Source: Candidatus Daviesbacteria bacterium (GTDB lineage: Bacteria; Patescibacteriota; Microgenomatia; Daviesbacterales; UBA10151). Taken from it: DNA of 64,000 nt. Below, piece after piece: positions 3,497-61,100 of this stretch. Positions within the stretch are counted from its first letter, which is position 1. Each line of letters begins with the position of its first letter. The notes beneath the pieces were generated by a model. That model did not search any database, had not been told where the DNA came from, and saw only the letters and a program-made list of their open reading frames with translations. The stretch covers positions 5,082 to 69,081 of the forward strand of contig JAUYKM010000007.1 in NCBI GenBank assembly GCA_030699125.1, read 5' to 3'. Made by a program: the position numbers and the translations under genes.

Positions 3497-3505
3497 TATC
3501 AAAGT

Positions 3506-15887: not shown

Positions 15888-15907
15888 AATCCGCCAGCTG
15901 GCGGATT
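15888..15907. repeat. family B palindrome AATCCGCCAGCTGGCGGATT (perfect, 20 bp), intergenic between convergent radA and the TPR membrane gene
   Basis: Perfect dyad; likely a bidirectional terminator-like hairpin. Confidence 0.8.
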
Positions 15908-22910: not shown

Positions 22911-22934
22911 GTCATTCCTGCGAAGGCAGGAATC
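22911..22934. repeat. family D hairpin GTCATTCCTGC-gaag-GCAGGAATC
   Basis: 8-bp stem ATTCCTGC/GCAGGAAT; intergenic. Confidence 0.7.
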
Positions 22935-22957
22935 TAATTAACAATTTGCGCTCATTT

Positions 22958-23662
22958 CTAATTGGATCCCCGCATACGCGGGGATGACGGTTCTTTCTTG
23001 CCTTTACATATAAAATAGGTTGATCTGTCAAAAAATGGCAGCAGTTTAAAGATGACATCTCTAAAGTCAGCTTCTTTCCATGATACCTCAATTGAGGTGG
23101 AGGGGATGATGGTCACCTTCTGAAAATACCGTTTTATCTTCCACCAATCCAAAGGAGTAGAACGGTACAAGATAAACCCACCATAATTGGCATATGGCCC
23201 CTCAAAAAAGCGGGGCAAAGCTTTTAAATTAAATCTGGAGTGAGTACTAAAAATAAAGAGGCCATTCGGTTTCATTACTCTTTTGGCCTCAGCAATACAC
23301 CGGTAAATATCAGGGTAAATACAGCTCATGCTGTTTGATGGAAAAAAAACTATATCAAAAGAATTGGGGGGAAATTTTAGGTTGCAGGCATCCATTTTGA
23401 AGACCTTGATAGGCAACCCCTTAACTTTTTCCTGGGCAGCCTCAACCATCTTGGGAGTGATATCAATGCCTGTGACCTGGTAGCTCATTTGGTGGAGTGG
23501 TATTAATGTCCTACCTGCCCCACAACCCAGCACCAATACTTTCTTGCCCCTGAAATATTTTTTGGCAAGATACTCTTCACCCGGGGTTAAATAATATTTT
23601 TTATATTCGTTAACCTGGGAGGAAAACATTTTGATATTGTGTTCCATTACCTGATTTAACAT
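22958..23662 (-). CDS. class I SAM-dependent methyltransferase; C-terminal 9 residues supplied by a hairpin repeat
   Basis: VLVLGCGAGRTLIPL (motif I), GIDITPKMVE; the ORF terminates inside repeat 22964-22988 (…SSPRMRGSN*). Confidence 0.75.
   Translation of the reverse strand: MLNQVMEHNIKMFSSQVNEYKKYYLTPGEEYLAKKYFRGKKVLVLGCGAGRTLIPLHQMSYQVTGIDITPKMVEAAQEKVKGLPIKVFKMDACNLKFPPNSFDIVFFPSNSMSCIYPDIYRCIAEAKRVMKPNGLFIFSTHSRFNLKALPRFFEGPYANYGGFILYRSTPLDWWKIKRYFQKVTIIPSTSIEVSWKEADFRDVIFKLLPFFDRSTYFICKGKKEPSSPRMRGSN
22964..22988. repeat. family D hairpin GGATCCCCGC-atac-GCGGGGATGAC, forms the 3' end of the methyltransferase ORF
   Basis: Stem ATCCCCGC/GCGGGGAT, GGATnCC...GGRATGAC termini shared with the other copies. 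Confidence 0.7.
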
Positions 23663-43488: not shown

Positions 43489-43500
43489 TAATTTTCCTAT

Positions 43501-43526
43501 TGTCATCCCGCCGAATGGCGGGATCC
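43501..43526. repeat. family D hairpin TGTCATCCCGCC-gaat-GGCGGGATCC in the 5' leader of the O-antigen-ligase-like gene
   Basis: Stem ATCCCGCC/GGCGGGAT. Confidence 0.7.
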
Positions 43527-43556
43527 AATTAACCATGTAAGCTAGGTTTTTAATTA

Positions 43557-43715: not shown

Positions 43716-46700
43716 TCATGGAGAGGGTGGGCCGATGCCGACAGTAGGATTACCGGATACTATTAAGTAATCAAATTCCACATCTTTGGTTTCTGACTTG
43801 GATAGTTTGACGGTAAAGGATCCGTCTGATTTATTAGTAACAGTGATCAGCTGGCCTAAGGGCACTTTAGGGGTGAGCAGGATAACTGAGGTTTCATCAA
43901 TGTGAGGATTTTTAATGGAGGCTTGGATTTGGCCGGCCGGGATAATACCAACTCCTGCTGTTTGATCCTGTTTAACTTTAATTTGATCTACTATGATGGT
44001 TTTAGCCTTAATGGTACCGTCTTTCTCCAGGGTAATTTTTCCATTAAAGATATCTATGGAAGAAGCCAGTTGAGATTTCTGAAGATAGAGGGTGGATAGA
44101 GCATCAATGGTATTCTCACTGAATGATAATGTTCCATCTATAGTTAGGTTTCCGGCAATTAAAGTATTACCTAAGGTGGTAGTACCAAAGGATTTAAGGG
44201 AGTTTTGGATAATGGCATCATAAGCGGTTAAGGATCCCAGGATCTGGGCAGAGGAAGTTACCTTAAGGTCTGCAGTTAAGGTAGCTGAGTCAGAAGCCAG
44301 TAAGATGTCCGGAGGAGTTAAGTCCAGTGCATCAGTGGATCGGTGTATCAGTGTATCATATAAGGCAAGTTCAGCAGAGTCAGAAGCCTCAGAACTGATT
44401 CCAGCAATCTCTGCAGAAGGAGTAGCTTCAGTATTTTCTTCCTTAATTCTTAATTCTAGATTCTTAATTCTAGATTCTAATGTAGCTATCTTGCCGGAAA
44501 GGTCATAAAACTGGACGGTAGAGGATGGAGAATAGATGGTAGTATTTTGAGGATCGAGGGTAGAAGATGGAGAAGAAGAATCTGTAATCAATCTACTATC
44601 TTCTATCTTCAAATTACTATCTTCTATCCCTCTACTATCTATCGTCAATGATGCTACCTTAAGCTTGGGTATAATTAAATTTCCTTCATTATCCATAGTT
44701 AAGGATGAGAAGAAATTCCCCGGATCTGCAAAGCCACTCTTAACATGGACTAGGATCTGGCCACATTCCACACCCGGTGTGTAAGCGCAATTTTCCACAC
44801 CGGGTGTGGAGCCGGTGTTAGCTGAGAAATCCTCTAATGCTTGGCCTATGACTTGTCCTGGTCTGGTGGCTTTGGCTGCTACTCCCGGAATTTCTGATGA
44901 GGTTAGGTAATCTCCTCTTTTAATATCCCCATTGATAGTAGATACTTTGGTCTTAATCTGACCAAGAAGGCCCACAATGGCTTTATTCACACCGGGGGAG
45001 TCAAGGCCCACCCCCGGTGTGTAGTCTGCGTTTCCTACAAAAGCAGCATCTTTGGAGACTACACCAATCAGGTTTTGGTCATAAGGGATGGATGATTTAG
45101 CCACTCCAGAATGACTCACCCCGGGGGAATCAAGGCCCGCCCCCGGGGTGGCTAGGCTTACTAAATCCCCATCCTCAGTTTCCTCTAAAGCATCAAAATA
45201 TTCTGCAAAATCAGCACCGGTAGATTCATAAGCTACTTTATTATCATTAAGCCTGATTCTGCCTACTCTGACTCCGGCGCTGTCACTGGCCACCCCAGCA
45301 TAAAAATCAATAAAATTAGATGAGACTCCGGAAACAGCAGTACCCAAACCTATCCTTAATCCGGATGTATCCGGAGTATCTACTCCTGACAGGTTAACTA
45401 TGGAGGCAGCAGCAGAGGAGGAAGCTTCCTTCTCTATGGTTAATCCATACAAAGGATTGGTAGTACCAACTCCTACATTACCCAAACTTAATATATTAGA
45501 TGTGGATAATACTGAGCCTCCTACAGACAGACTCACACCGGGGGAGTCAAAGCTCGCACCGTACGGTGTGGCTCCTATTGCCAGGTTACCATCCAGATAT
45601 AGTAAACCTGAATCTAATCTCTCAATGAATTGTTCAGCTTCCCACCAGGTCACATTAACCTGCATTAAAATCTGGCCAGGCGGGGCACCAGTACTACTCA
45701 CACCGGGGGAGTCAGAGCCCACCCCCGGTGTGGCTAAGTAGTCCTCCATAGCTCTGCCAATAATCCTTCCTGTTTTAGTTGCTTTCATGGCTTCACCAGT
45801 AGTAGATGAGGAAGTGAGAGGATCACCTGTATAGATTGGTCCGTTCTCCAGATTAACCTTAACCCATACTTGTCCGAGCATTCCTACATTGGCATAGGTA
45901 GGATCAGAATCCCTGTTATCATCAGGATTATTATATGAAGTACCTCTGGTAGTTATGACTCCAATAATATTCTCATCATAGGATGAATTTGACCTTCGCA
46001 CCACCCCGGGGGAGTCAAAGCCCACCCCCGGTGTGCCCGGAGTTAATATCATGACATCCCCGGGTTCAGATGCATCCTCCTGTTTAATATATTCTGAATA
46101 ATCAGCAGTAGTAGCATCTGAATTGAATCTAAAGGTAGTACCGTTGGACTGGACCCAGATACGGCCTTCAGAAGCAATATTACAGGCATCTACACAGCCT
46201 ATGGCAAGCTCACCGTCAACATCTAACCCGTTCGGGGTGGTATTTACATTATCCCCGATTTCCAGAACCAGATTAGTGCTGTCATATTCAAAAGTGGAAT
46301 AACCGGTAATTGAGGATGTCCCATCCCAGACAGCTATCTGAGGAGCAGTTCCTGTACCGGTAAGCCCGGCGCCTGCATCTGCCTCACAAACTACTCTGCC
46401 TGCAGAATCTGTAGTTAGCTTCCCTCCACCTGATAATCCTGAACAATTATAACTTTGCAGCCGCAGGGCAGACCCTACTGTAAGTGAAACACCTATTCCG
46501 GCATTACCGGCCACATCCACTCCGTAATTGGCAGAAGTTCTGCCTATTCCTACATTGCCAAAGACAGATAACCCCAATCCTGGAATAGATGAGAAGGTAT
46601 TCCCTGTCCAGCCAATCCCTACATTACCTCCCACAAATAATGTAGATCCTGGAGTAGATGTACCTATACCTAGGTTTATTCCAACATTACCCCCGTTGAA

Positions 46701-49700
46701 GATTGCAGCTGGAGCTGTATATCCTGCACCAACACCAATCATATTAACTACTAACCCTGGAGTACCTGAACTTACCCCAATCCCCACCATCCCTTGTGAA
46801 TATAATCCTCCTGGACCTATTCCCAACCCTCCACCTACTGTGAGCTGATTACTAATAATAGCTGATTCCCTGACTTGTAAAGCCCCGGCCTCCAATGATC
46901 CAATCTGTGCAGATGTAACATCTATTCCTCCTATATCATAAATCTGAAACTCACAACCTACATTAGTCTGAGCATCACAGGTGTTCGCATTGCTGACTTT
47001 TGTTGCATAGAGGTATCTTCCTGACACAAAAATTGTCTTATCAACATTACCTGCAGGAGCATTCCCTCCATTATCAGCCCCTCCTACAAATATAGGATTG
47101 GATGGATTAGACACATCATATACTTGTATCTCACAACCAATACTTGCAGAGAAACTACATAACCCAGGATTAGCAGCATTACTTAGATACAGATATTTTC
47201 CTGAAACAAAAACAGATCGAATAGCATTAACTACAGAAGCAGTGCTTACTTGTGTTGGAGAATAGGGATTAGATATTCTATAAACATAATATGTTCCACC
47301 ACTATCCCCTAAATAAGCATAACTTCCTGATACAAAAACTGATTCTATGCGATTAGTTCCCCCAGGAGCAACGCTACTTACTCGTATTGGTTTTATAGGA
47401 TTAGAAACATCATAAATATCTAAATAACTAGAGGCTGACCCCCCTCCCACATAAACATATCTTCCAGAAACAAATATAGAAATTGGGAAAGCACTAAGAG
47501 AAATCTGACTTACTAGTAAAGGTGAGGTCGGATCGGAAACGTCAGCAATTTCTAAAATATTAGAGCTATTAGCAATATAAGCATATCTACCTGAAACAAA
47601 TAAAGCAGCAGTACCTCCCGGAAAAGTTAGATTTAATCCTCCCGTGTATAAAGGTTTACTAGGGTTAGATATATCCCAAATTTGAAACTCACAACCATCT
47701 CTGGTAGTAGAAGAACAAGCACCATTGTTTACCCCCCTACCAAGATATAAATAATTTCCTGAAACATAAATAGAAGCAGCGCTACCAGTAAAGCCAGGGG
47801 TACCTGAAATCCCCGCTATAGCAACAGGAGAATTTGGATTAGATATATCATATATTAGAAGGAGACAATTAGTAAGAGTGCTGAGTGTACATGCATTACC
47901 AGTGCTATTATTTTTTCCTACATAAGCATACTTGCCTGAGATAAAGATAGCAGTTCCGTTATTAGTTGATGTAAAACTTGCCCCACCAATATACATAGGA
48001 TTTTGGGGGGTCTGTAACAAACTACCTCCTAATATATCAAGAGCACTTCTGGGGGCAGTAGTTCCAACACCTACATTACCTTGGGAGGTAACTGTAAATG
48101 GTAGTGGATTAGTTAAATTAGTTCCCACATAAGTAGGATTAATTTGGAAAAGCTGGGATGGTGAAGTCCAACCTATACCTATATTACCATTTAGGAATAC
48201 TGCTCCCGGGATATCATTTGAACCAAAGCCTGCTCCCCATAAGTGGAATGGTGCTATGGGACTGCTGGTCCCCAAACCTACATTCCCTTCCACAATCAAC
48301 CCATTGGCAGGAGCATTATAATAGGCAAAGGAGGAACCTATGCCCATAGATCCAAAGACCCCTAATCTGTTGGCTGAGGCAGAGGAACCTATTCCCAGTC
48401 TCATATTGGCATTATCCCAGAAGAATGGATCAGCTCCCTGAACCTGAGTCCCACCGCCATTAAAGAAGGTAACCTGGCCTGCTTCCGGGGTACCAAATGC
48501 CTCAATTCCTGAACCTCCGGCATCAGCATCACAAACTACCCTGCCTGAAGAATCTGTGGTTAACATACCATCACCGCAATTATAGATTTGCAATTGCAAA
48601 GCTGATCCTACTGTTAATGATTGTCCTATACCTACATTACCTACTACATGCAGTCCATATGTTGGGGTGGTGGTGCCAATGCCTACATTGCCAAAGACAG
48701 ATAATCCCAAGGAAGGCATGGCAGCAAAGGTATATCCGGTCCAGCCTATCCCCACATTTCCTCCCACAAAAAGGGTAGATCCCGGAGTAGAAGCCCCAAT
48801 TCCAAGATTTATCCCTACATTCCCTCCATTAAATATAGCAGCCGGAGCTGTATATCCGGTCCCCACTCCTAACATATTTACTACTAATCCTGGAGTCCCG
48901 GATGAAACCCCAATCCCCACCATTCCCTGGCTTAATAATCCTCCTGGTCCTATATTAATACCACTGTTAACTGTTAACTGATTACTGATAACTGCACTTT
49001 CTCTGACCTGTAACCCACCTGCCTCTAAACTACCTATTAATGCACTAGTTACATCTATACCCCCAATGTCATAAATCTGAAACTCACAATCTGTTTTTTT
49101 TGATGAACAGTTAGGACTACTAGAAGCTACACCATCTCCTACATATGCATACCTGCCTGAGACAAAAACTGTATTAGCAGCACTACTGCCAGCATCTGTA
49201 ACATTAGCCCCACCTACATATAATGGATTGTAAGGGTTTGAAACATCATAAACTTGTAATTCACAACCAGTAGAAGTAAAGAAGTTACAAGTTCCAGTAT
49301 TAACAGTTTTTCCTAAATACAAATATCTTCCTGAAACAAAGACAGAGTTAATACCATCTCCAGCAGAAGCTGTAGCTACTTGAGATGGAGAATAAGGATT
49401 GGATGTATCAAATATTCTCAATGTTCCACCACTATCTCCTATATATGCATATCTGCCTGAAACATAAACAGAGTTAGCAGTACCGCTAGTAGAAGTACTA
49501 CTTATCTGTATTGGATTGGTAGGATTAGTTACATCAAATATCTTTAAAGTAGTACCATCTCCTGCATAAGTGTATCTTCCTAAGGTAAATACAGAAGCTA
49601 TAGCATTCCCAGTATTTATTCCTCCTGTATATACAGGAGAAGTGGGGTTAGATACATCATAAATCTGTAATTCACAACCAGTATTTGTAGTAGAGGAACA

Positions 49701-52700
49701 GGTACCACCATTGGCAGCCTTGCCTAAATAGGCATACCTGCCTGATACAAAGACACTCTGGCCAGCATCCCCTCCATCATCTGCCCCACCTATATATAAT
49801 GGATTATTAGGATTGGATACATCATAAACTTGTAATTCACAACCAGTATTGGTGGTGGAGGAACAAGTACCAGCATTACCAGTTTTTCCTAAATATGCAA
49901 ATTTACCAGAAACATAGATACTCTCGACTAGATTAGCTATTTCAAAGCCATTTATAAAAGTTGGATTATTTGGATTAGAGACATCAAAAATCATAAACTC
50001 ACACCCTGTGTTGCTCCCTGCTGTACAACTACCAGTTTCAAATTCTGTTCCAACATAAGCATATTTACCTGAAACAAATATACTTGTTACTACTTGAGAA
50101 TCAGTTGCTTGTAGGTCTGATCCTCCTATAAAGGTAGGATTTTGGGGGGTTTGGAGGAGGGAACCACCTAAAATGTCCAGGGCACTTCTAGGAGCAGTTG
50201 TACCTACACCTACATTTCCCTGTGATGTAACTGTAAAAGGTAGGGGATTAGTTAATTGGGTTCCTACATATGTTGGATTAATCTGGAAGAGTTGGGAAGG
50301 TGAAGTCCAGCCTATACCCACATTGCCATTAAGAAATACTGCTCCCGGAGTTTCATTAGAAGCAAATCCTGCTCCCCAAAGATGGAAAGGAGCAATAGGA
50401 CTGCTGGTCCCCAAGCCTACATTACCCTCTATAACTAGAGAGTTGGAAGCTGGAGTCTGGAAACTGGAAAAAGAGGTACCAATACCCATAGATCCAAAGA
50501 CCCCTAATCTGTTAGCTGAGGCAGAAGAACCTACCCCTAACCTCATTAATTCATTATTCCAGAAGAGAGTATTAGCTCCGGTGACAGATGATCCCCCGTC
50601 AAAGAAGGTAACCTGGCCGGAGGCTGCGGAACCGGAAAGTGTATCTGCGCCGGAATCATCCTGACAAACTACTCTGCCGGAGGAGTCTGTAGTTAACTTA
50701 CCTCCACCACCTAAGCCATTACAAGCATAACCGGAAAGCTGCAAAGCAGACCCTACTGTGAGTGATTGTCCTATTCCTACGTTTCCTACTACCTGCAGTC
50801 CATATGTTGGGGTGGTGGTGCCAATGCCTACATTGCCAAATACAGATAACCCTAATCCTGGCATACTAGCAAAGGTAAATCCGGTCCAGCCAATCCCTAC
50901 ATTACCTCCAACAAATAATGTGGAACCTGGAGTAGAGGATCCTATCCCCAGATTAATCCCTACATTACCTCCATTAAATATAGCTGAGGGAGCAGTATAC
51001 CCTGTACCTACCCCTAACATATTAACCACTAACCCTGGAGTACCTGAACTTACCCCTATCCCTACCATTCCTTGTGATAATAATCCTCCTGGACCTAATC
51101 CTATTCCACCACCTACATAAAGCTGGTTATTTATGAATGCATTTTCCCTAACCTGTAACCCTCCAGCCTCAAGTGATCCAATCTGAGCAGATGTTACATC
51201 TATCCCAGAAATATCAAATACATTTATTCCACAGAAATTAGTATCCGAAGTACAAGTCTTAACGTTATTAAACTGCAGGGTATATAAATACCTACCAGAT
51301 ACAACTATTGCTGTACTACCACCCAAATTAGCAACTCCAGTATCTTTACCTCCTAAGAAAATAGGATTAGCAGGATTTGAGATATCCCAAAGTTGTATTG
51401 TACAACCAGAATTAGTTATGGAATTACACGTAGGATTAGGTAAACCAAGCTTATTTCCTCCCACAAATAAGTAGTTACCAGATACTGCAAAAGAGAATGC
51501 AAAAGCGCTACTAGTTCCAAAAGCATTAGTACTCATAAGAGTGGGACTGGCTGGATTTGAGATATCAAATATTTTGAATTGGCCAGTATTACCAGCATTA
51601 GTATAAGCATATCTACCGGAAACATAAATATCACCACTCTGAGATATTGCACTCATACTAGCTCCTCCTAAATATAAAGGACTGGCTGGATTTGAGATAT
51701 CATAAATCATGAATTCACAGCTAGTATTATCGGTAGAATTACAAGTACCAGCACCATTAGCCTTTCCTACATAAGCATATTTGCCGGAAACGAATAAACC
51801 AACAGCATTAACATTTAGGCTTACTGTTGATACACGAGTAGGATTAATTGGATTGGAGATATCATAAATTTGAAAAGCATGTGCAGTAACAGTAGTTATA
51901 TAAAGATATCTGCCAGATATTTGAAGACCTCTAATACTGCCAGATACAGATACCTGTCCAACAAGAGCAGGGGCTGTTGGATTAGATATATCATAAACTC
52001 GTAAATTAAGTCCTGTTCCAACATAAGCATAATTCCCCACAACATATACTCCACCAACAAGGCTAGAGCCAATGGTTGCACTGCCTATCTGAGTTGGCGT
52101 AGAAGGATTACTAATATCTAAAATTATCAAACCAGTACTATTTAGAATATACAAATATCTACCTGAGACAAAAACTTCATTTTGACCGCTATTATTATTT
52201 TGTCCAGCGGTAATATTATTAGAAGTACCATTAGTTCCCCCAACCCAGGTAAGATTTTGGGGGGTTTGGAGTAAACTACCACCTAAGATATCCAGAGCAG
52301 ACCTAGGAGCAGTAGTTCCTACTCCTACATTACCTTGGGAAGTAACTGTAAAAGGTAGCGGATTAGTTAACTGAGTCCCTACATAAGTTGGGTTTATCTG
52401 GAATAATTGGGATGGAGAAGTCCAGCCAATTCCTATATTACCATTTAAGAATATTCCTGAGACAGTGCCATTACCCCATACATGTAAGGGAGCAATGGGG
52501 GAAGAAGTACCCAGACCTACATTTCCTTCCACAATTAATCCATTAGCAGGAGCATTATAATAGGCAAAAGATGAACCAATCCCTAATGATCCAAAGACCC
52601 CAAGGGTGTTGGCTGAGGCAGAGGAACCTATACCTAATCTCATTAATTCATTATTCCAATAAAATGGAGTTGCACCCTGAACCTGAGTCCCGCCTCCGTC

Positions 52701-55130
52701 AAAGAAGGTGACCTGTCCTGCCTCCGGACTACCTGCTGCCTCAATTCCTGAACCTCCGGCATCAGCATCACAGATTACCCTGCCGGATGAATCTGTGGTT
52801 AACATACCGTCACCGCAATTATAGATTTGCAATTGCAAAGCTGATCCTACTGTTAATGATTGTCCTATTCCTATATTACCTATGACCTGCAGTCCATAAG
52901 TTGGGGAAGTAGTACCTATACCCACATTACCAAATACAGATAACCCTAACCCTGGCATGCTAGCAAATGTATATCCAGTCCAACCAATCCCTACATTTCC
53001 TCCCACTACCAGTGTGGCTCCTGGTGTGGAAGATCCAATTCCTAAATTAATCCCTACATTTCCCCCATTAAAAATGGCAGCCGGAGCAGTATACCCAGTC
53101 CCTATTCCTAACATCTCTACTCTTAACCCAACTGTTCCACTACTTACTCCTATTCCCACCATCCCCTGACTTAATATTCCTCCTGGTCCCACCCCTAATC
53201 CTCCTCCTACTGATAGCTGATTACTAATTATTGCTGATTCCCTGACTTGTAAAGCCCCGGCCTCCAGTGATCCAATCTGTGCAGATGTCACATCTATACC
53301 TGATATATCATATATCTGAAATTCGCAACCGTCATTGGTAGTAGTACAAGACCCACTATTTAAAGCTACTCCAGCATATGCATATCTACCAGAGATAAAG
53401 ATTGATTGAATGTAATTTAAAGTACTCGCCCCTCCTATAAATAGAGGCAGAGCCGGATTAGAAATATCATAAATCTTAAATTCACAACCAGTGCTATCAG
53501 TAGATGAACAAGTTCCAGTGTCTAGACTACTCCCTATATACAAATACTTGCCTGAAACATAGATAGAACGCGCAATCGCCGCAAAGGAGAGACTACTTAT
53601 TTGAGTTGGTGAGTAAGGATTAGATATATCATAAATTTGCATTGAAGCATTACCACTCCGTGCCGCATATGCATATCTACCTGATACAAAAATTGAGCCA
53701 TAATTAATTGATATATCTGCCCCTCCTACAAATACCGGGTTTGTGGGATTAGAAATATCATAAATCTGGAATTCACAACCAGTATTAGTAGTTGAGGAAC
53801 AAGTGCCAGCGTTACTATCTTTTCCTATATAGGCATATCTGCCTGAAACAAAGATAGGGCGATCTATAGAATTATTGCCAATATCATTATCCCCATTATC
53901 TGCCCCTCCTACAAATACCGGGTTTGTGGGATTAGAAATATCATAAATCTGGAATTCACAACCACCAGGAGTAGTAGAATTACAAGTACTGGTATTAAGA
54001 TCTTTCCCTACATATGCATACCTGCCTGAAACAAATACAGCGTTGATTCCTTCAGCTCCATCATCTGCACCACCTACAACCCTGGGTCTTGCCGGATCAG
54101 ATATATCTATAATTTGCAGTTCACAATTATTAAAATTGGTACTGGTACTGGCACAGGCGGCGGCGCTACCAGTTCTTCCTATATAGGCATATCTGCCTGA
54201 AACAAAGACAGCTAGGACGGCTGTGGGATTAATACTACCAACAGTTATTGTTGTTGGAGCAGCAGGATTAGATACATCGATTACCTTAAAACCTCCAGAA
54301 TCTCCAACATAAGCATATTTACCGGAGACAAAAACAGGATGAGGGGCGTTGTTTAAGGTTAGTCCTCCTACAAAGGTGGGATTTTGGGGGGTTTGGAGGA
54401 GGGAACCACCCAGGATATCTAAGGCAGATCTGGGAGCAGTAGTACCAACTCCTACATTTCCCTGGCTAGTAACTACAAAGGGTAAAGGATTAGTTAATTG
54501 AGTACCTACATATGTAGGATTAATTTGGAATAATTGAGAAGGTGATGTCCAGCCAATTCCTACATTTCCTCCCGTTAAATAAGTATTATGAGCCACAATA
54601 TCATTACCCAGAAAATTATGGGTGCCTTCTATTTGCAGATCATATGTTCTGCCTCTTTTTACCTTAGAAACCGAAGCAATTTCTTCCCACCCATCTATGG
54701 TGGCAATAAACATGCCCGGTTTAATGGATTGAACTTTTAACCATTCCCCGTCAATTAATGGCTTGCCACGTACCGACTGGTACTGTGGTGAACCTCTTAA
54801 GTCCTGGTTGCTGTGGCCCATGATTTTGACAAAATAGGGATGTTCTTTGGTGGTCCTGATTCTTTTACCTTGGGAAGTAATCAGCTCGTATAGATCCTGG
54901 ATGCCTTTGAAGAGGGCAGCCTCCACAGTATGCCATTCAAAATAACCTGTCCTCTCATTTAAAGATAGAATCTCATCCCCCGGCTGAATTTGCTCCACCG
55001 GTACTTCTTCCTCAATCCATCCGCCAGCTGGCGGATCGATTTTTTTGATGTTAGCTACCTTCTCCAACTTACCGTCTATGGAGAGTAACATTCCTACATC
55101 CAGGTCTGATACTTTAATTTGGTTTTTCAT
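43716..55130 (-). CDS. giant modular surface protein (3,804 aa): N-terminal Hint/mini-intein domain, four modules of about 700 aa (Gly-rich tail-fibre-like repeats + LVIVD beta-propeller blades), C-terminal tandem about 100-aa domains
   Basis: Hint blocks GKRIRTTKEHPYFV (TxxH) and TYDLQIEGTHNFLGNDIVAHN|T; repeated GNVGIGTTSPxYGLxVxGNVGIG units; blades YAYVGxxxGxxxIYDISNPxxP; uninterrupted 11.4-kb ORF; ATGA overlap with the upstream paralog. Confidence 0.85.
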   Translation of the reverse strand: MKNQIKVSDLDVGMLLSIDGKLEKVANIKKIDPPAGGWIEEEVPVEQIQPGDEILSLNERTGYFEWHTVEAALFKGIQDLYELITSQGKRIRTTKEHPYFVKIMGHSNQDLRGSPQYQSVRGKPLIDGEWLKVQSIKPGMFIATIDGWEEIASVSKVKRGRTYDLQIEGTHNFLGNDIVAHNTYLTGGNVGIGWTSPSQLFQINPTYVGTQLTNPLPFVVTSQGNVGVGTTAPRSALDILGGSLLQTPQNPTFVGGLTLNNAPHPVFVSGKYAYVGDSGGFKVIDVSNPAAPTTITVGSINPTAVLAVFVSGRYAYIGRTGSAAACASTSTNFNNCELQIIDISDPARPRVVGGADDGAEGINAVFVSGRYAYVGKDLNTSTCNSTTPGGCEFQIYDISNPTNPVFVGGADNGDNDIGNNSIDRPIFVSGRYAYIGKDSNAGTCSSTTNTGCEFQIYDISNPTNPVFVGGADISINYGSIFVSGRYAYAARSGNASMQIYDISNPYSPTQISSLSFAAIARSIYVSGKYLYIGSSLDTGTCSSTDSTGCEFKIYDISNPALPLFIGGASTLNYIQSIFISGRYAYAGVALNSGSCTTTNDGCEFQIYDISGIDVTSAQIGSLEAGALQVRESAIISNQLSVGGGLGVGPGGILSQGMVGIGVSSGTVGLRVEMLGIGTGYTAPAAIFNGGNVGINLGIGSSTPGATLVVGGNVGIGWTGYTFASMPGLGLSVFGNVGIGTTSPTYGLQVIGNIGIGQSLTVGSALQLQIYNCGDGMLTTDSSGRVICDADAGGSGIEAAGSPEAGQVTFFDGGGTQVQGATPFYWNNELMRLGIGSSASANTLGVFGSLGIGSSFAYYNAPANGLIVEGNVGLGTSSPIAPLHVWGNGTVSGIFLNGNIGIGWTSPSQLFQINPTYVGTQLTNPLPFTVTSQGNVGVGTTAPRSALDILGGSLLQTPQNLTWVGGTNGTSNNITAGQNNNSGQNEVFVSGRYLYILNSTGLIILDISNPSTPTQIGSATIGSSLVGGVYVVGNYAYVGTGLNLRVYDISNPTAPALVGQVSVSGSIRGLQISGRYLYITTVTAHAFQIYDISNPINPTRVSTVSLNVNAVGLFVSGKYAYVGKANGAGTCNSTDNTSCEFMIYDISNPASPLYLGGASMSAISQSGDIYVSGRYAYTNAGNTGQFKIFDISNPASPTLMSTNAFGTSSAFAFSFAVSGNYLFVGGNKLGLPNPTCNSITNSGCTIQLWDISNPANPIFLGGKDTGVANLGGSTAIVVSGRYLYTLQFNNVKTCTSDTNFCGINVFDISGIDVTSAQIGSLEAGGLQVRENAFINNQLYVGGGIGLGPGGLLSQGMVGIGVSSGTPGLVVNMLGVGTGYTAPSAIFNGGNVGINLGIGSSTPGSTLFVGGNVGIGWTGFTFASMPGLGLSVFGNVGIGTTTPTYGLQVVGNVGIGQSLTVGSALQLSGYACNGLGGGGKLTTDSSGRVVCQDDSGADTLSGSAASGQVTFFDGGSSVTGANTLFWNNELMRLGVGSSASANRLGVFGSMGIGTSFSSFQTPASNSLVIEGNVGLGTSSPIAPFHLWGAGFASNETPGAVFLNGNVGIGWTSPSQLFQINPTYVGTQLTNPLPFTVTSQGNVGVGTTAPRSALDILGGSLLQTPQNPTFIGGSDLQATDSQVVTSIFVSGKYAYVGTEFETGSCTAGSNTGCEFMIFDVSNPNNPTFINGFEIANLVESIYVSGKFAYLGKTGNAGTCSSTTNTGCELQVYDVSNPNNPLYIGGADDGGDAGQSVFVSGRYAYLGKAANGGTCSSTTNTGCELQIYDVSNPTSPVYTGGINTGNAIASVFTLGRYTYAGDGTTLKIFDVTNPTNPIQISSTSTSGTANSVYVSGRYAYIGDSGGTLRIFDTSNPYSPSQVATASAGDGINSVFVSGRYLYLGKTVNTGTCNFFTSTGCELQVYDVSNPYNPLYVGGANVTDAGSSAANTVFVSGRYAYVGDGVASSSPNCSSKKTDCEFQIYDIGGIDVTSALIGSLEAGGLQVRESAVISNQLTVNSGINIGPGGLLSQGMVGIGVSSGTPGLVVNMLGVGTGYTAPAAIFNGGNVGINLGIGASTPGSTLFVGGNVGIGWTGYTFAAMPSLGLSVFGNVGIGTTTPTYGLHVVGNVGIGQSLTVGSALQLQIYNCGDGMLTTDSSGRVVCDADAGGSGIEAFGTPEAGQVTFFNGGGTQVQGADPFFWDNANMRLGIGSSASANRLGVFGSMGIGSSFAYYNAPANGLIVEGNVGLGTSSPIAPFHLWGAGFGSNDIPGAVFLNGNIGIGWTSPSQLFQINPTYVGTNLTNPLPFTVTSQGNVGVGTTAPRSALDILGGSLLQTPQNPMYIGGASFTSTNNGTAIFISGKYAYVGKNNSTGNACTLSTLTNCLLLIYDISNPNSPVAIAGISGTPGFTGSAASIYVSGNYLYLGRGVNNGACSSTTRDGCEFQIWDISNPSKPLYTGGLNLTFPGGTAALFVSGRYAYIANSSNILEIADVSDPTSPLLVSQISLSAFPISIFVSGRYVYVGGGSASSYLDIYDVSNPIKPIRVSSVAPGGTNRIESVFVSGSYAYLGDSGGTYYVYRISNPYSPTQVSTASVVNAIRSVFVSGKYLYLSNAANPGLCSFSASIGCEIQVYDVSNPSNPIFVGGADNGGNAPAGNVDKTIFVSGRYLYATKVSNANTCDAQTNVGCEFQIYDIGGIDVTSAQIGSLEAGALQVRESAIISNQLTVGGGLGIGPGGLYSQGMVGIGVSSGTPGLVVNMIGVGAGYTAPAAIFNGGNVGINLGIGTSTPGSTLFVGGNVGIGWTGNTFSSIPGLGLSVFGNVGIGRTSANYGVDVAGNAGIGVSLTVGSALRLQSYNCSGLSGGGKLTTDSAGRVVCEADAGAGLTGTGTAPQIAVWDGTSSITGYSTFEYDSTNLVLEIGDNVNTTPNGLDVDGELAIGCVDACNIASEGRIWVQSNGTTFRFNSDATTADYSEYIKQEDASEPGDVMILTPGTPGVGFDSPGVVRRSNSSYDENIIGVITTRGTSYNNPDDNRDSDPTYANVGMLGQVWVKVNLENGPIYTGDPLTSSSTTGEAMKATKTGRIIGRAMEDYLATPGVGSDSPGVSSTGAPPGQILMQVNVTWWEAEQFIERLDSGLLYLDGNLAIGATPYGASFDSPGVSLSVGGSVLSTSNILSLGNVGVGTTNPLYGLTIEKEASSSAAASIVNLSGVDTPDTSGLRIGLGTAVSGVSSNFIDFYAGVASDSAGVRVGRIRLNDNKVAYESTGADFAEYFDALEETEDGDLVSLATPGAGLDSPGVSHSGVAKSSIPYDQNLIGVVSKDAAFVGNADYTPGVGLDSPGVNKAIVGLLGQIKTKVSTINGDIKRGDYLTSSEIPGVAAKATRPGQVIGQALEDFSANTGSTPGVENCAYTPGVECGQILVHVKSGFADPGNFFSSLTMDNEGNLIIPKLKVASLTIDSRGIEDSNLKIEDSRLITDSSSPSSTLDPQNTTIYSPSSTVQFYDLSGKIATLESRIKNLELRIKEENTEATPSAEIAGISSEASDSAELALYDTLIHRSTDALDLTPPDILLASDSATLTADLKVTSSAQILGSLTAYDAIIQNSLKSFGTTTLGNTLIAGNLTIDGTLSFSENTIDALSTLYLQKSQLASSIDIFNGKITLEKDGTIKAKTIIVDQIKVKQDQTAGVGIIPAGQIQASIKNPHIDETSVILLTPKVPLGQLITVTNKSDGSFTVKLSKSETKDVEFDYLIVSGNPTVGIGPPSP
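44769..44809. repeat. in-frame palindromic element, variant pair CCACACCCGGTGTG ... CCACACCGGGTGTGG (encodes TPGVENCAYTPGVE)
   Basis: Two copies of a self-complementary 13-mer 12 nt apart inside giant gene 1. Confidence 0.6.
44989..45022. repeat. in-frame 34-bp palindromic element CACACCGGGGG-agtcaaggccca-CCCCCGGTGTG (encodes TPGVGLDSPGV)
   Basis: 11-bp perfect inverted arms; family A. Confidence 0.85.
45117..45150. repeat. family A palindromic element (encodes TPGAGLDSPGV); absent at the homologous site of the paralog
   Basis: Gene 1 ...actca[ccccgggggaatcaaggcccgcccccgggg]tggctaggctt versus gene 2 (56628) ...actca-tggttaggctt: an exact 30-bp in-frame indel. Confidence 0.9.
45534..45570. 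repeat. family A palindromic element, right arm decayed (encodes TPYGASFDSPGV)
   Basis: CACACCGGGGGAGTCAAAGCTCGCACCGTACGGTGTG. Confidence 0.7.
45699..45732. repeat. family A palindromic element (encodes TPGVGSDSPGV)
   Basis: CACACCGGGGGAGTCAGAGCCCACCCCCGGTGTG. Confidence 0.85.
46002..46035. repeat. family A palindromic element (encodes TPGVGFDSPGV)
   Basis: CACCCCGGGGGAGTCAAAGCCCACCCCCGGTGTG. Confidence 0.85.
55019..55036. repeat. family B palindrome ATCCGCCAGCTGGCGGAT in-frame in the Hint domain of giant gene 1 (encodes IDPPAGGW)
   Basis: Same 14-nt core, same reading frame as at 20540. Confidence 0.8.
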
Positions 55131-58100
55131 GGTCCGCTGGCTTGAATAGTAGATTTATCTATTCCTACGATTAAGTAATCAAAAGTAATGTCAAATGTTT
55201 CCGGACGGGCCAGTTGAACCGTAAACTTGCCTTCTTTTTTGTCTATCACGGCTAAGCTCTGAGTTAAGGCAATATCTGCTGTTACAGGAGTAATCAGAAT
55301 GATGGAATCCTCTGCAGCGTATGAGTTTTCAATCAGGGTATTAATCTGGCCTTTAAGGATAGTACCTTCTCCCCGGCTGGTGTCAGGATTAACCTTAATC
55401 TGATCTACTATGATGGTTTTAGCCTTAATGGTACCGTCTTTCTCCAGGGTAATTTTTCCATTAAAGATATCTACTGAGCTAGAAAGTAGAGATTTTTGAA
55501 GATAGAGGGTGGATAGAGCATCAATGGTATTCTCACTGAATGATAAAGTTCCATCTATGGTTAGGTTTCCGGCAATCAGAGTATCTCCTAAGGTAGTTTG
55601 TCCAAATGATTTAAGGGAATTCTGGATAATGGCATCATAAGCTGTTAAGGATCCCAGGATCTGGGCAGAGGAAGTTACTGTAAGGTCTGCAGTAAGAGTG
55701 GCAGAACCGGAAGCAAGTAGGATATCAGGAGGGCTAAGATCTAGCTGATCAAGCTGGGCCAGGATGGAAGAGGAAGATGATTCATTCACTTGAGCCAGGG
55801 CTGCAGAGGAGGTGGCAGTATTGTCATCCTCTTGTAGAAGGGGATCCAATAAACTGTCAGAGTTAGAATTGTCACTATTTGTTAATTGGATTCCTGCATC
55901 CGCAGGAATGACATTTTGGTCCAGGGTGTTTTCCAGCTGAGCTATTCTTTCCTCAAGTGAGGCAATCTTGCCGGAAAGATCATAATATTGGACGGTAGAG
56001 GATGGAGAATAGATGGTAGTATTTTGAGGATCGAGGGTAGAAGATGGGGAAGAAGAATCTGTAATCAATCTGCTATCTTCTATCTTCAAATTACTATCTT
56101 CTATCCCTCTACTATCTATCGTCAATGATGCTACCTTAAGCTTGGGTATTATCAGATTCCCTTCATTATCCATAGTTAAGGATGAGAAGAAATTCCCCGG
56201 ATCTGCAAAGCCACTCTTAACATGGACAGAGATGAGGCCCTGTTTCACCCCGGGGGAGTCTCCCTCGACTTCGCTCGGGACAAGCGGGCCCACCCCCGGG
56301 GTGTTAGCTGAGAAATCCTCCAATGCCTGTCCTATTACCTGTCCTGGTCTGGTGGCTTTGGCTGCTACTCCCGGAATCTCTGATGAGGTTAGGTAATCTC
56401 CTCTTTTAATATCCCCATTGATAGTAGATACTTTAGTCTTAATCTGACCCAGTAAGCCTACAATGGCTTTATTCACACCGGGGGAGTCTCCCTCGACTTC
56501 GCTCGGGACAAGCGGGCCCACCCCCGGTGTGTAGTCTGCGTTTCCTACAAAGGCAGCATCATGGGAAACAACTCCAATCAGGTTTTGGTCATAAGGGATG
56601 GATGATTTAGCCACTCCAGAATGACTCATGGTTAGGCTTACTAAATCCCCATCCTCAGTTTCCTCTAAAGCATCAAAATACTCTGCAAAGTCAGCACCCA
56701 CTGATTCATATGCTACTTTGTTATCATTAAGTCTGATCCTGCCAACTCTCACCCCGGGGGAGTCAGGGCCCGCCCCCGGGGTGGCTACTGCTGCATAGAA
56801 GTCTATGAAGTTGGAGGAAGTGCCGGAGATAGGTGTACCTAAGCCTAATTTAAGGGCAGATGTATCAGGGTTATCAGCTTGAGATAGATTAATAATGGAG
56901 GCTGAGGCTGAGGATGAGGCATCTTTAATTATATCCAGTCCATAAAGGGGATTGGTGGTGCCAATACCAACATTACCTAAGGATAAGATATTGGATGTGG
57001 CAAGGATTGAGCCTTCAACTGCCAGGCTCACCTCGGTGCCGGGAGGACTGCCTCCTATTGCTAGGTTACCATCCAGATATAGTAAGCCTGAATCTAATCT
57101 CTCAATAAATTGTTCAGCTTCCCACCAGGTGACATTAACCTGTATTAAAATCTGGCCAGGCGGGGCACCAGTACTGCTCACCTCGAAGGAGTCAGGGTCC
57201 ACTTCCGAGGTGTAGTTTTCCATGGCCCTGCCTATAATTCTTCCTGTTTTAGTTGCTTTCATGGCTTCACCTTGAGTAGATGAAGAAGTTAGAGGATCAC
57301 CTGTATAAATTGGTCCGTTCTCCAGATTAACCTTAACCCATACTTGGCCGAGCATTCCTACATTGGCATAGGTAGGATCAGATTGTCTATTATCATCCGG
57401 ATTATTATATGAAGTCCCTCTGGTGGTAATTACCCCGATAATATTCTCATCATAGGATGAATTTGACCTTCGCACCACCCCGGGGGAGTCAGTGCCCACC
57501 CCCGGTGTGCCCGGAGTTAATATCATCACATCCCCGGGTTCAGATGCATCTTCCTGTTTAATATATTCTGAATAGTCAGCAGTAGTAGCATCTGAATTGA
57601 ATCTAAAGGTGGTACCGTTAGATCTGGTCCAGATACGGCCGGCAGAGGCAACTGTTCCTGTTGATCCGATGGTAAACTCACCATCTACATCTAAACTATC
57701 TGGAGTTGTGCCTGTATCTCCAATTTCCAGAACCAGATTAGTACTGTCATATTGAAAAGTGGAATAACCGGTAATTGAGGATGCCCCATCCCAGACAGCT
57801 ACCTGAGTAGCAGTTCCTGTACCGGTAATGCCGCCAGCACCTCCGGCATCTGCCTGACAAACTACTCTGCCTGAGGAATCTGTGGTTAATTTACCGCCGT
57901 TGGTTAGGACCCCGCAGTTATATGATGATAACTGCAAAGCTGATCCTACTGTTAAGGATTGTCCAATACCTACATTACCTACTACATGTAATCCATAAGC
58001 TGGGGAAGTGGTTCCAATTCCTACATTACCAAAAACAGACAGTCCCAGTCCCGGCATGGAGGCAAAAGTGTTGGCTGTCCAGCCAATGCCAACGTTGCCT

Positions 58101-61100
58101 CCCACAAAAAGGGTTGATCCAGGAGTAGAAGCCCCTATCCCTAAATTAATCCCCACATTCCCACCATTAAATATAGCTGCTGGAGCTGTATATCCAGTCC
58201 CTACTCCTAACATCTCTACTCTTAATCCTACAGTTCCACTAGATACCCCTATCCCCACCATGCCTTGTGAATATAATCCTCCTGGCCCAATACCTAACCC
58301 TCCACCTACAGTTAACTGATTATTAATAAATGCATTCTCCCTAACTTGTAATCCACCAGCCTCAAGTGATCCAATTAATGCAGATGTAACATCAATCCCC
58401 CCTATATCATAAATCTGAAACTCACACCCTTCACTGTTAATTGCATTACAAGTATTAGAATTAGCAGCTTTACCTGAATAGAGATATCTTCCTGAAACAA
58501 AGATAGCTTTATCAGCCCCAACATTATTCCCCCCATTGTCAGCCCCTCCTACATACAGGGGATTATTTGGATTTGAGATATCATAAACCTGAATCTCACA
58601 ACCAGTAGAGGTGAAAAAATTACATACTCCAGCATTGGCAACTTTCCCCAGATATAAATATTTTCCTGATACAAATACTGATTGAATAGCATCTCCTGTA
58701 GTGATTGTGGATGATTGGGTAGGAGAGTATGGATTGGATACATCAATTATTCTTAATGTCCCACCACTATCTCCTACATAAGCATATCTGCCTGAGACAA
58801 AAATGGAGTTAGTATCAGATGTATAACCAATAATAGTTTTGCCTATTAAGATGGGATTTGTAGGATTAGATATATCATAGATACCCATTTCACCGTCATC
58901 ACAAAGTTCGGGTAAGCCACTAAAACACCTTGCTATATAAGCATATCTACCTGAGACAAAAATGGAGTTAACAGTTAATGCATTCATACTACTACCGCCT
59001 ATATATAATGGGCGTGAAGGATTAGAGATATCGTATATTCTTAATACTCCTCCGTTCTCTACAGTATATGCATACCTGCCTGAAACAAAGACACTAGTGC
59101 TGTTTCCTCCATTATCAGCTCCTCCCACAAAGATGGGATTAGCTGGATTAGATACATCATATATCTGTAACTCACAACCTGTTGAGGTGGTAGAAGAACA
59201 AGTACCAGCATTAGAATTTGTCCCTACATATGCAAATTTACCTGAGATAAATACAGATTGAGCAGTAGAAGTAGTAGAAATACTACTTATTTGTACAGGT
59301 GAGTTAGGATTAGTTACATCAAAGATTTTAAGAGTAGCTCCATCACCTGCATATACATATTTTCCAGAGGCAAACACAGAATTCATGCCATTTCCAGTAT
59401 TTAATCCTCCCACAAAGGTAGGATTCTGGGGGGTTTGGAGGAGGGAACCACCTAGGATATCTAAAGCTGATCTGGGGGCTGTGGTTCCTACTCCAACATT
59501 ACCTTGGGATGTAACAGTAAATGGTAGGGGATTAGTTAACTGTGTCCCTACATATGTAGGATTAATTTGGAATAATTGGGAAGGGGAAGTCCAGCCTATG
59601 CCAATATTTCCATTTTGGAATATTGCCGAACCGGACAAATGAAAGGAAGCAATAGGTGAGCTGGTCCCCAAGCCTACATTACCTTCCACAATTAATCCAT
59701 TGGTGGGAGCATTATAATAGGCAAAGGAGGAACCTATGCCCATAGATCCAAAGACCCCTAATCTGTTAGCTGAGGCTGAAGAACCTACCCCTAACCTCAT
59801 TAATGCATTATTCCAAAATAGAGTATTAGCTCCCGTTACAGAGGATGCCCCGTCAAAGAAGGTAACCTGTCCTGAAGATCCTGAACCTGTTACCCCGCCG
59901 CCTCCGGCATCAGCTGCACAAACCACTCTGCCTGAAGAATCGGTAGTTAATTTCCCACCGCCACCCAACCCTGAACAATTATAGTTTTGCAGCTGCAAAG
60001 CAGATCCTACAGTTAAGCTCTGTCCAATTCCCACATTACCCACTACATCTAATGCATAATTAGCTGTGGTAGTTCCAATCCCCACATTCCCAAAGACAGA
60101 TAATCCTAAGCCCGGCATGGATGCAAAGGTAAATCCAGTCCAACCTATTCCTACATTCCCTCCTACTACGAGAGTTGCTCCCGGAGTAGAAGCACCTATA
60201 CCTAAATTAATCCCTACATTTCCTCCATTAAATATAGCTGCAGGAGCTGTATATCCAGTACCTACTCCTAACATCTCCACATATAATCCAGTGGTTCCAG
60301 AAGATACTCCAATCCCCACCATTCCCTGAGATAATAATCCACCAGGTCCTACTCCCAACCCTCCACCCACTGTTAGTTGATTAGATATTATTGCTGATTC
60401 TCTAACTTGCAGACTACCTGACTCAAGAGAACCTATTAAAGCACTTGTTACATCAATCCCACCTATATCATATATCTGAAACTCACATCCCACATTAGTC
60501 CCTGCATTACAAGTCCCGGCATTGGCAGCTTTTACCATATAAGCATACCTGCCGGAGACAAAGACCTCATTACCATCATCCCCCAAATCAGCCCCGCCCA
60601 CTAAAGCAGGTGAGGAGGGATTGGATATATCATAAATCCTGAATTCGTTACCTGTTACAGTACCAGTTACCACATAAGCATACCTGCCTGAGACAAAGAC
60701 ACCCCAACCATTAGTCCCCAACTCAACCCCGCCCACTAAAGTAGGTGAGGAGGGATTGGATATATCATAAATCCTGAATTCGTTACCTGCGTCATTATCA
60801 AGTACCACATAAGCATATCTTCCTGAGACAAAGACATCACGACTAAAATTTCCTAACTCAACCCCACCCACCTCAATAGGTGAGGAGGGATTGGATATAT
60901 CATAAATCCTGAATTCGTTACCTGTTACAGTACCAGTTACCACATAAGCATACCTGCCTGAGACAAAGACACCCCAACCACCATTCCCCAAATCAGCCCC
61001 GCCCACCTCAATAGGTGAGGAGGGATTGGATATATCATAAATCCTGAATTCGTTACCTGTTACACTACCATGTACCACATAAGCATACCTGCCTGAGACA

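Follow-up and report, generated by a model that had tools for sequence, protein, structure and literature searches.

Introduction

The question raised by this locus is what an intein-type domain can still do at the very start of a protein, where there is hardly anything in front of it to be spliced. The locus consists of two giant genes, here called gene 1 and gene 2, in a 64-kb stretch of a Candidatus Daviesbacteria metagenome-assembled genome (MAG), which was analysed as a whole and is referred to as the window. The genes are tandem neighbours, each codes for a protein of ~3,800 residues, and each protein is headed by a Hint domain. In this report, we describe the mini-intein core of this domain, the absence of a recognisable N-terminal catalytic strand and the family from which the domain derives, and we propose tentatively that it is a pro-domain which removes itself by cleavage at its own C-terminus.

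The Hint core of gene 1

The translation of the gene 1 open reading frame (ORF) opens with MKNQIKVSDLDVG... (MKNQIKVSDLDVGMLLSIDGKLEKVANIKKIDPPAGGWIEEEVPVEQIQPGDEILSLNERTG...), and the NCBI annotation has the identical start. Profile matches and structural models identify residues ~38-182 as a genuine domain of the Hint/intein type. The Pfam profile PF14890 (Intein_splicing) matches residues 42-182 with 51.9 bits (gathering score 35.8) at profile positions 9-155 of 155, and TIGR01443 (intein_Cterm) matches residues 162-183 with 28.9 bits (cut-off 15.6). The best sequence matches in the PDB are the mini-inteins of Npu and Ssp DnaB (E 2.5e-9 and 5.5e-7, respectively); the structure 2lwy of a bacterial intein-like (BIL) domain reached only E 1.4e-3 in the same search. 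With an AlphaFold2 model as query, Foldseek ranked the NpuDnaB intein first (E 4e-10, template modelling score 0.83), and in a second AlphaFold2 run residues ~41-105 and ~123-183 were predicted with a local distance difference test score (pLDDT) of about 80-95. A nuclease insert is absent, as the profile is covered end to end in ~145 residues and the two halves of the domain are joined by a 26-residue linker.

The sequence motifs of splicing domains are present in the core (blocks B, F and G, Table 1). The block B residues T94-K-E-H97 are invariant in both paralogs and in the family of related inteins described below, and the C-terminal His-Asn/Thr (the slash marks the junction) shows no variation in either paralog or in any of the 22 canonical family sequences of the alignment. 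Position 4 of block F is Asp164 (Y-D-L), and the +1 residue behind the junction is Thr183. An earlier sequence-only reading of this DNA had described a complete mini-intein at the extreme N-terminus of gene 1, with blocks B and F/G, a His-Asn/Thr junction and no endonuclease domain, and had named a Hint profile search as the check. The significant PF14890 match, the top rank of the DnaB mini-inteins by sequence and by fold and the motifs in the translation bear this out for the Hint core, whereas the word "complete" does not extend to block A.

The leader and the missing block A

In canonical inteins of the family, the Hint core is preceded by block A, i.e. the strand that carries Cys1, and by a variable loop; in gene 1 their place is taken by a leader of 37 residues. 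Searched alone, this leader gave no Pfam match, and a leader-only search of a collection of 5.8 billion protein clusters returned no homolog outside genes 1 and 2. Against a hidden Markov model (HMM) of the short-loop N-termini of the family, residues 1-37 scored 1.4 bits, a value equalled by 370 of 2000 shuffles. In both AlphaFold2 runs, the N-terminal 30-40 residues stayed at a pLDDT of <50 and the leader never docked into the fold; in the second run, the alignment forced Ser8 onto the Cys1 of the family, and there was still no confident N-terminal strand. No Cys1 strand or CVTGDT-type fragment was found in any frame of the window. Two other interpretations of the leader were rejected: as a block A hairpin belonging to a second, short-loop intein that was fused on at a palindrome in the loop, since the HMM match was not significant, and as a relative of elongation factor P, since the NCBIfam match (E 8e-4, residues 7-36) has no Pfam support and was taken as chance.

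Differing alignments place intein position 1 at Val7, Ser8, Asp9 or Leu15, and MAFFT gave three answers depending on trimming. Ser8 is our best guess for position 1 from the sequence, as indicated by the offset of the TIGR01445 match (residue 19 corresponds to profile position 12) and by the distance to the "DPP..GG..W" loop in a canonical relative; Ser9, which had been proposed as the first possible nucleophile, is not the candidate. Among the residues tried (7, 8, 9, 15 and 19-22), there is no conserved Cys, Ser or Thr that is shared with gene 2, where Ser8 is replaced by Pro and Val7 by Ala. With Pro in place of Ser8 in the paralog, the question of a position-1 nucleophile is settled. As far as sequence and models go, the N-terminal catalytic strand is missing or unrecognisable, and the domain is not demonstrably complete.

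The paralogous domain of gene 2

The reading frame of gene 2 is open to base 64000, the edge of the window (the ORF list gives 55127..63964 with an ATG start), and the true protein runs 862 residues further upstream. An exhaustive HMMER search returned as best match a protein of 3819 aa (P0004) that is encoded on the same contig as gene 1 and whose residues 863-3819 are 100% identical to the 2957 residues of gene 2 in the window. This protein is therefore gene 2 itself and was dropped as an ortholog from another genome. Its 5' end, which the sequence-only reading had asked to be inspected, codes for the same Hint domain: the head reads MTSIRAPELDVGMLLNINGRKERV...NDIVAHN/TYLMGG, or in another rendering MTSIRAPELDVGMLLNINGRKERVASVKKLDPPAGGWIEEEVPVEQ...NDIVAHN/TYLMGGNIGIGW, and matches PF14890 with 57 bits. 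The annotated N-terminus begins with 34 residues that resemble a translated repeat of the repetitive extragenic palindromic (REP) type (MKDSVIPADAGIQ...WIPAYAGMTREGFE), followed by leader and Hint domain; owing to this REP-like repeat, the annotated start is probably 34 codons too far upstream.

Residues 819-3791 of gene 1 can be aligned with residues 2-2945 of gene 2, which ends with ...STIQASGP before the stop; its C-terminal domain is a paralog of the gene 1 domain. In a comparison of the two proteins, identity amounts to 60% in the leader, 85% in the Hint core and 68% in the remaining protein (41-86% per 182-residue window). The 21 substitutions in the core are biased to columns that are variable in the family (Mann-Whitney p = 0.034), and neither paralog has lost any of the family-invariant residues.

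Descent from a family of canonical inteins

The HMMER search yielded ~1,800 representative proteins at E<=1e-3, and the motif counts given here are taken from the best 150 of these. A strict Cys1 motif, mostly ...GQ/CVTGDT(R/L/K)L and often followed by a poly-Arg/Lys loop, is matched by 136 of 179 intein N-halves, and the C-terminal junction is almost always AHN/TY(I/L). The inteins sit in the tail-fibre-like repeat GNVGIGTTxPxxxLHVxGQ / TY(I/L)... of giant proteins from the candidate phyla radiation (CPR). At least 22 proteins contain two or more inteins, with a maximum of five in one protein of 5631 aa. The loci that were fetched are assigned mainly to Daviesbacteria, Blackburnbacteria and Andersenbacteria, and contig scans of genomes and metagenomes yielded canonical relatives only. 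Among the fetched loci, the nearest relative is L010, with 71% identity in the best segment; it is likewise canonical, has a long N-extein and Cys1, and reads ...LHVVGQ/CVAEGTRIRRRRR...VAHN/TYISGNVGIG. An Andersenbacteria protein (P0002, 'MAGQ/C...') that looked like a second intein-first case was dropped, as its reading frame continues upstream, interrupted only by scaffold Ns, and the intein is thus internal; the Andersenbacteria homolog has an N-terminal transmembrane (TM) anchor upstream of its intein.

Genes 1 and 2 still show where such an intein belongs. Each ~700-aa module of their proteins contains ...LHVWG..(I/V)FLNGNIGIGWTSPSQLFQINPTYVG, and the intein-free modules read ...LHVWGN..IFLNGNIGIGW at the place that corresponds to the intein site. 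Because the LHVWG site is found there, the Hint domain can be located at the canonical site of the first module, the part upstream of it being missing. Judged by sequence, the Hint domain of genes 1 and 2 descends from this family of class-1 inteins with Cys1 and a His-Asn/Thr junction. In the simplest history, fission or 5' truncation at an internal intein would have removed the N-extein and the Cys1 strand from an ancestor of the two genes, a leader of 37 residues without a conserved nucleophile would then have replaced the lost strand, and the whole intein-headed unit would then have been duplicated in tandem. The G+C content at third codon positions (GC3) of the gene 1 Hint domain is 0.44, the highest value among 20 equal-sized windows of gene 1 (others 0.14-0.41), and still inside the range of other genes in the 64-kb window; the peak fits an origin of the Hint domain separate from that of the rest of gene 1.

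Several observations concern the family itself. In some of its inteins (P0018, P0116 and others), an NYN domain (PF01936, E 1e-19 to 1e-21) occupies the usual insertion point of homing endonucleases, and others carry another conserved insert (FEVDQSxRIEEL...DTEYxGYE...IGKKSPAHxAAY); both are candidates for unconventional homing nucleases. Another Daviesbacteria genome (JACPKL01) has two related inteins that are broken (L005 and L006, both 9300-10060). The L005 intein is frameshifted in its loop, with a stop behind ...KRRRRRRKTMDDGEIEDGG and a continuation in another frame, and the short stretch before the Hint core contains no ATG, GTG or TTG start for the downstream frame; in L006, the PGDE..LN block and the C-terminal junction are lost. 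A protein of 4487 aa (P0008) starts just past the poly-Arg position and ends in an L005-type stop. The ENA contig Hain_H43 (L002, 2491 nt) holds a tandem repeat of ~1091 bp, and the antisense strand of its intein insert contains two ORFs that by eye resemble a DUF433-type antitoxin and a PIN-like toxin; coverage of this contig is low and it may be an assembly artefact. In the literature searched, we found no description of inteins in CPR repeat proteins or giant surface proteins, and the wider family in giant CPR repeats may be a more interesting lead than the heads of genes 1 and 2.

C-terminal self-cleavage and rival explanations

Class-1 splicing begins at position 1, and because a conserved nucleophile is lacking there, steps 1 and 2 would be blocked. 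The heads of genes 1 and 2 are probably unable to splice and may at most remove themselves. This agrees with the earlier view of the domain as less a splicing intein than one able to cut only at its own C-terminus. Our favoured explanation, to which we assign a probability of roughly 0.45, is that the N-terminal Hint domain is a self-removing pro-domain which is cut between Asn182 and Thr183. The C-terminal machinery is intact (Asp164 and His171 in block F, His181-Asn182 in block G, Thr at +1); cyclisation of Asn182 would break the bond to Thr183 and free a pro-domain of ~20 kDa. The mature protein would then start at Thr183 with TYLTGGNVGIGW..., and the predicted semi-tryptic N-terminal peptide is TYLTGGNVGIGWTSPSQLFQINPTYVGTQ.... 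That inteins can cleave off-pathway at their C-terminus, by cyclisation of Asn with the earlier steps left out, is well documented (PMC4031507). We infer both that the cut occurs and why the domain would have been retained, either as a removable folding or solubility cap or through the simple need to free the first module.

Several points weigh against self-cleavage. Some inteins couple Asn cyclisation strictly to formation of the branched intermediate (PMC4031507), and for this reason a domain without Cys1 may be inert. The leader is not confidently modelled, and the fold may be too incomplete for activity. The Thr-x-x-His pair of block B, which serves mainly the N-terminal step, is retained, and this would fit a still-splicing element equally well. 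The cores of the paralogs are only ~15% diverged and may undergo gene conversion, which makes their conservation weak evidence for function. Finally, the intein-first architecture was seen in one genome only.

The first of these points leads to the alternative that the domain is an inert relic, i.e. a leftover of the fission that stays uncut and attached as an N-terminal beta-domain and is either tolerated or has a second use as a cap for structure or binding. We regard this as conceivable, albeit unlikely. It would be in line with the loss of Cys1, with the strict coupling mentioned (PMC4031507), with the N-terminal strand that could not be modelled and with the decay of intein copies in giant genes of related Daviesbacteria (frameshift in L005, lost junction in L006). 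Truly decaying copies in related genomes soon lose the junction, however, whereas genes 1 and 2 keep an intact domain of 182 codons with all family-invariant catalytic residues in both paralogs, and few stretches of the proteins are conserved as well as the Hint domain (85% versus 68% identity).

The remaining alternatives assume that the domain splices. It could be the C-half of an atypically split intein, in which the core from ~Trp38 onward, devoid of strand beta-1, is completed in trans by a short N-terminal fragment (IntN) of the form ...LHVxGQ-CVTGDTxL-RRRR (e.g. ...LHVVGQ-CVTGDTKLRRRRRR) at the C-terminus of a separate protein such as a membrane anchor. This we consider improbable, even though the core begins where canonical relatives resume past the poly-Arg loop, with the acidic WIEEE stretch kept, the leader never docks into the modelled fold, and block B and Thr at +1, both required for splicing, are retained. 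In addition, the giant proteins have neither signal peptide nor TM helix, whereas the Andersenbacteria homolog has its N-terminal anchor, and ORFs that end or start just past the poly-Arg loop recur in relatives (P0008, L005). Yet no frame of the 64-kb window codes for a CVTGDT-type fragment, the C-terminus of gene 2 is a normal paralogous domain and not an IntN, and the conserved leader (60%) would need to be displaced; moreover, L005 with no visible start codon before its Hint core resembles a frameshifted pseudo-intein, and many of the truncated ORFs are probably contig ends within repeated inteins. There is a slightly smaller chance still that one separate anchor or export protein ending in ...LHVxGQ-CVTGDTxL-(Arg)n is trans-spliced onto either giant paralog. 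In that case, signal-less adhesin or fibre bodies of 3,800 residues would be joined post-translationally to a common membrane-anchored stalk, which would be a combinatorial, intein-based assembly of CPR surface proteins.

Splicing in cis through Ser8 would be confined to gene 1 and would join a seven-residue N-extein to the body of the protein (MKNQIKV-TYLTGG...), a leader whose rejoining has no obvious use. Ser8 comes to lie at position 1 in three independent alignments (TIGR01445 offset, local match to a short-loop block A, DPP..GG..W spacing), and blocks B, F and G and Thr at +1 are all present; nevertheless gene 2, whose leader is otherwise conserved, has Pro at the equivalent residue and Ala before it, the block A match is insignificant, being reached by shuffled sequences as stated above, and Ser8 forced onto Cys1 gave no confident strand, so that we see only a slender chance for this mechanism. 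The view that gene 2 and gene 1 are one ORF with an ordinary internal intein, split by a sequencing frameshift or misassembly, is effectively refuted. The 4-nt gene overlap and the broken inteins in related assemblies would suit it, but the C-terminal domains of gene 2 and gene 1 are paralogous, three stops lie in the gene 1 frame within the 30 codons before the ATG, no frame contains a Cys1 strand, and gene 2 also opens with leader and Hint domain, in the different upstream context of a REP-like element. A programmed frameshift from gene 2 into gene 1 is unlikely as well, as GGACCATGA contains no slippery heptamer and the end of gene 2 is a bona fide C-terminal domain.

Features and neighbourhood of the locus

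The coordinates of the features are listed in Table 1. The overlap of the gene 1 start with the stop of the upstream paralog and the palindrome that reads PPAGG, both pointed out from the sequence before, were found at the positions given there.

Table 1 Features of genes 1 and 2 in the 64-kb window
Feature	Position	Strand	Remarks
Gene 1 (Q8P92_00810, MDP3973350.1)	43716..55130	-	3804 aa; Candidatus Daviesbacteria MAG, contig of 72,967 nt
Layout of gene 1			N-terminal Hint domain, then 4 modules of ~700 aa, then C-terminal domain
Gene 2 (Q8P92_00815, MDP3973351.1)	55127..64000	-	3819 aa annotated; last 2957 residues in window
ATGA overlap	55127..55130	-	Gene 1 start codon 55130-55128 over gene 2 TGA stop 55129-55127
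Leader (MKNQIKVSDLDVGMLLSIDGKLEKVANIKKIDPPAGG)	55020..55130	-	Residues 1-37; in place of block A (Cys1 strand) and variable loop
Hint core	54585..55019	-	Residues 38-182; mini-intein splicing domain without nuclease insert
Block B (GKRIRTTKEHPYF)	54831..54869	-	Residues 88-100; T94-x-x-H97 (T94-K-E-H97)
Blocks F and G (RTYDLQIEGTHNFLGNDIVAHN)	54585..54650	-	Residues 161-182; D164, H171, H181, N182
Predicted scissile junction Asn182/Thr183	54582..54587	-	AHN/T conserved across the family
18-bp perfect palindrome ATCCGCCAGCTGGCGGAT	55019..55036	.	In Hint loop, read DPPAGG; core CCGCCAGCTGGCGG at 55021-55034 = PPAGG
Palindrome copies	15891-15904, 20550-20563, 21854-21867 (1 mismatch), 55021-55034

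The ~700-aa modules consist of tail-fibre-like G-rich repeats and LVIVD beta-propeller repeats, and neither a signal peptide nor a TM helix was predicted in the gene 1 or the gene 2 protein. The C-terminal 599 aa of gene 1 (43716-45515), a region also present in gene 2, are weakly matched by the intramolecular chaperone autoproteolytic cleavage domain Peptidase_G2 (PF11962; E 4.8e-4, 20 bits, below the 25-bit cut-off), and this region contains a ...ADFAEYFDALEETEDGDLVSL... motif; the giant proteins may be self-processed at their C-terminal end too, like phage tail spikes. Also in the C-terminal region, gene 1 residues ~3496-3540 and their equivalent in gene 2 include the segment ...NLKIEDSRLITDSSSPSSTLDPQNTTIYSPSSTV, which is closely similar to ...DLKIEDRKVDKNNLSSTLNPQNTTIHPLPSIV in the intein loop of L005/L006 from the other Daviesbacteria genome and may be another small element with in-frame insertion. 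The gene that follows gene 1 directly downstream (41150-43528, minus strand) codes for a protein in which TPR repeats are combined with a Wzy_C (O-antigen-ligase-like) domain, a possible partner of the giant proteins in glycosylation.

The palindrome CCGCCAGCTGGCGG, which extends to 18-20 bp with its flanks, occurs in four copies in the window, where 0.01 would be expected. The ORF 19878-22016 contains two of them, the Hint loop another, and the remaining copy is intergenic; PPAGG is the reading of two of the in-ORF copies, and the head of gene 2 contains DPPAGG as well. The palindrome looks like an iterated palindrome of genome-wide distribution. The REP-like repeat, which translates as VIPADAGIQ.../...NWIPA(Y/F)AGMT, was found at ~22933-22973, at ~43558 just downstream of gene 1, at ~55810-55897 inside gene 2 and at the 5' end of gene 2. 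The copy inside gene 2 is an in-frame insertion of 29 residues relative to gene 1 (TLDQNVIPADAGIQLTNSDNSNSDSLLDP).

Implications and comparison with known systems

Inteins are usually viewed as selfish inserts at conserved sites of essential enzymes. The family described here inhabits as a whole the repeat motifs of giant CPR surface proteins, and one offshoot that lost its front catalytic residue has become fixed right at the beginning of two genes. If Asn182 is indeed a cleavage site, this would be an intein that has been domesticated as a pro-domain removing itself. As a test system the two paralogs are compact, with a domain of 182 residues and one predicted scissile bond, and they could reveal the limits of uncoupling Asn cyclisation from the N-terminal steps in a natural Hint domain and how signal-less giant CPR proteins mature.

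Class-1 mini-inteins, such as those of Npu and Ssp DnaB and those of the CPR family, share with the gene 1 domain the Hint fold, the Thr-x-x-His of block B, Asp and His in block F, His-Asn in block G and Thr at +1, and the CPR inteins also share the C-extein context TY(L/I)..G.VGIG. In contrast to them, the gene 1 domain stands at the translational start of its host gene and not inside it. There is neither a Cys, Ser or Thr at position 1 (no block A, and Ser8 is Pro in the paralog) nor a pair of exteins, as no more than seven residues lie in front of the domain and the frame is closed further upstream, and we therefore file it as a degenerate derivative rather than as a member of the inteins. 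Class-3 inteins combine a non-nucleophilic residue 1 with a Cys at block F position 4 (WCT triplet) (PMC2807308, PMC4031507), and this mechanism is excluded by Asp164 at that position. Class-2 inteins have Ala1 and a Cys at +1 that attacks the N-terminal junction directly (PMC4031507), and they are excluded by Thr at +1.

A likeness to BIL domains, which the sequence-only reading had suggested, was not upheld. BIL domains are defined by the absence of a +1 nucleophile and keep Cys1 (PMC4031507), while gene 1 has the reverse, an invariant Thr at +1 and a lost Cys1; by sequence it is far nearer to inteins (PDB E 2.5e-9 versus 1.4e-3 for 2lwy) and an offshoot of a canonical Cys1 family, and an assignment to type A was rejected. 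Common to both is a Hint domain with a C-terminal His-Asn in large, variable, probably surface-exposed bacterial proteins, and in type A BIL domains cleavage products dominate over splicing (PMC4031507). In the Pretoxin-HINT domains (PF07591) of polymorphic toxins, the Hint domain likewise lies directly upstream of a cargo that is presumed to be released. The PF07591 scores are 23.2 for the gene 1 head (below the cut-off of 27.7) and 29.3 for that of gene 2, both with much higher PF14890 scores; unlike in these toxins, no toxin domain was found downstream, where there are LVIVD/beta-propeller repeats, and no large secreted stalk upstream. VidaL (PDB 6vgv), which is among the Foldseek matches, is an atypically split intein whose N-fragment is very short. 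Its C-fragment resembles the gene 1 domain in that the confident fold begins past the first strand, but genes 1 and 2 have their own conserved leader of 37 residues and no partner fragment in the 64-kb window.

In engineered C-terminal-cleaving tags, e.g. the Ssp DnaB-based vectors, Cys1Ala mini-inteins are fused N-terminally to a target protein and are freed by Asn cyclisation alone. The gene 1 domain is likewise an N-terminal mini-intein without a functional position 1; in contrast to these laboratory constructs, the arrangement in genes 1 and 2 is natural, is present in two paralogs and has a predicted activity only. To our knowledge, no natural counterpart of such a tag has been known so far, and cleavage at Asn182 would make genes 1 and 2 the first. 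By descent, the domain is a true intein; in its way of working, to judge from this analogy, it would be most like an engineered Cys1Ala intein tag.

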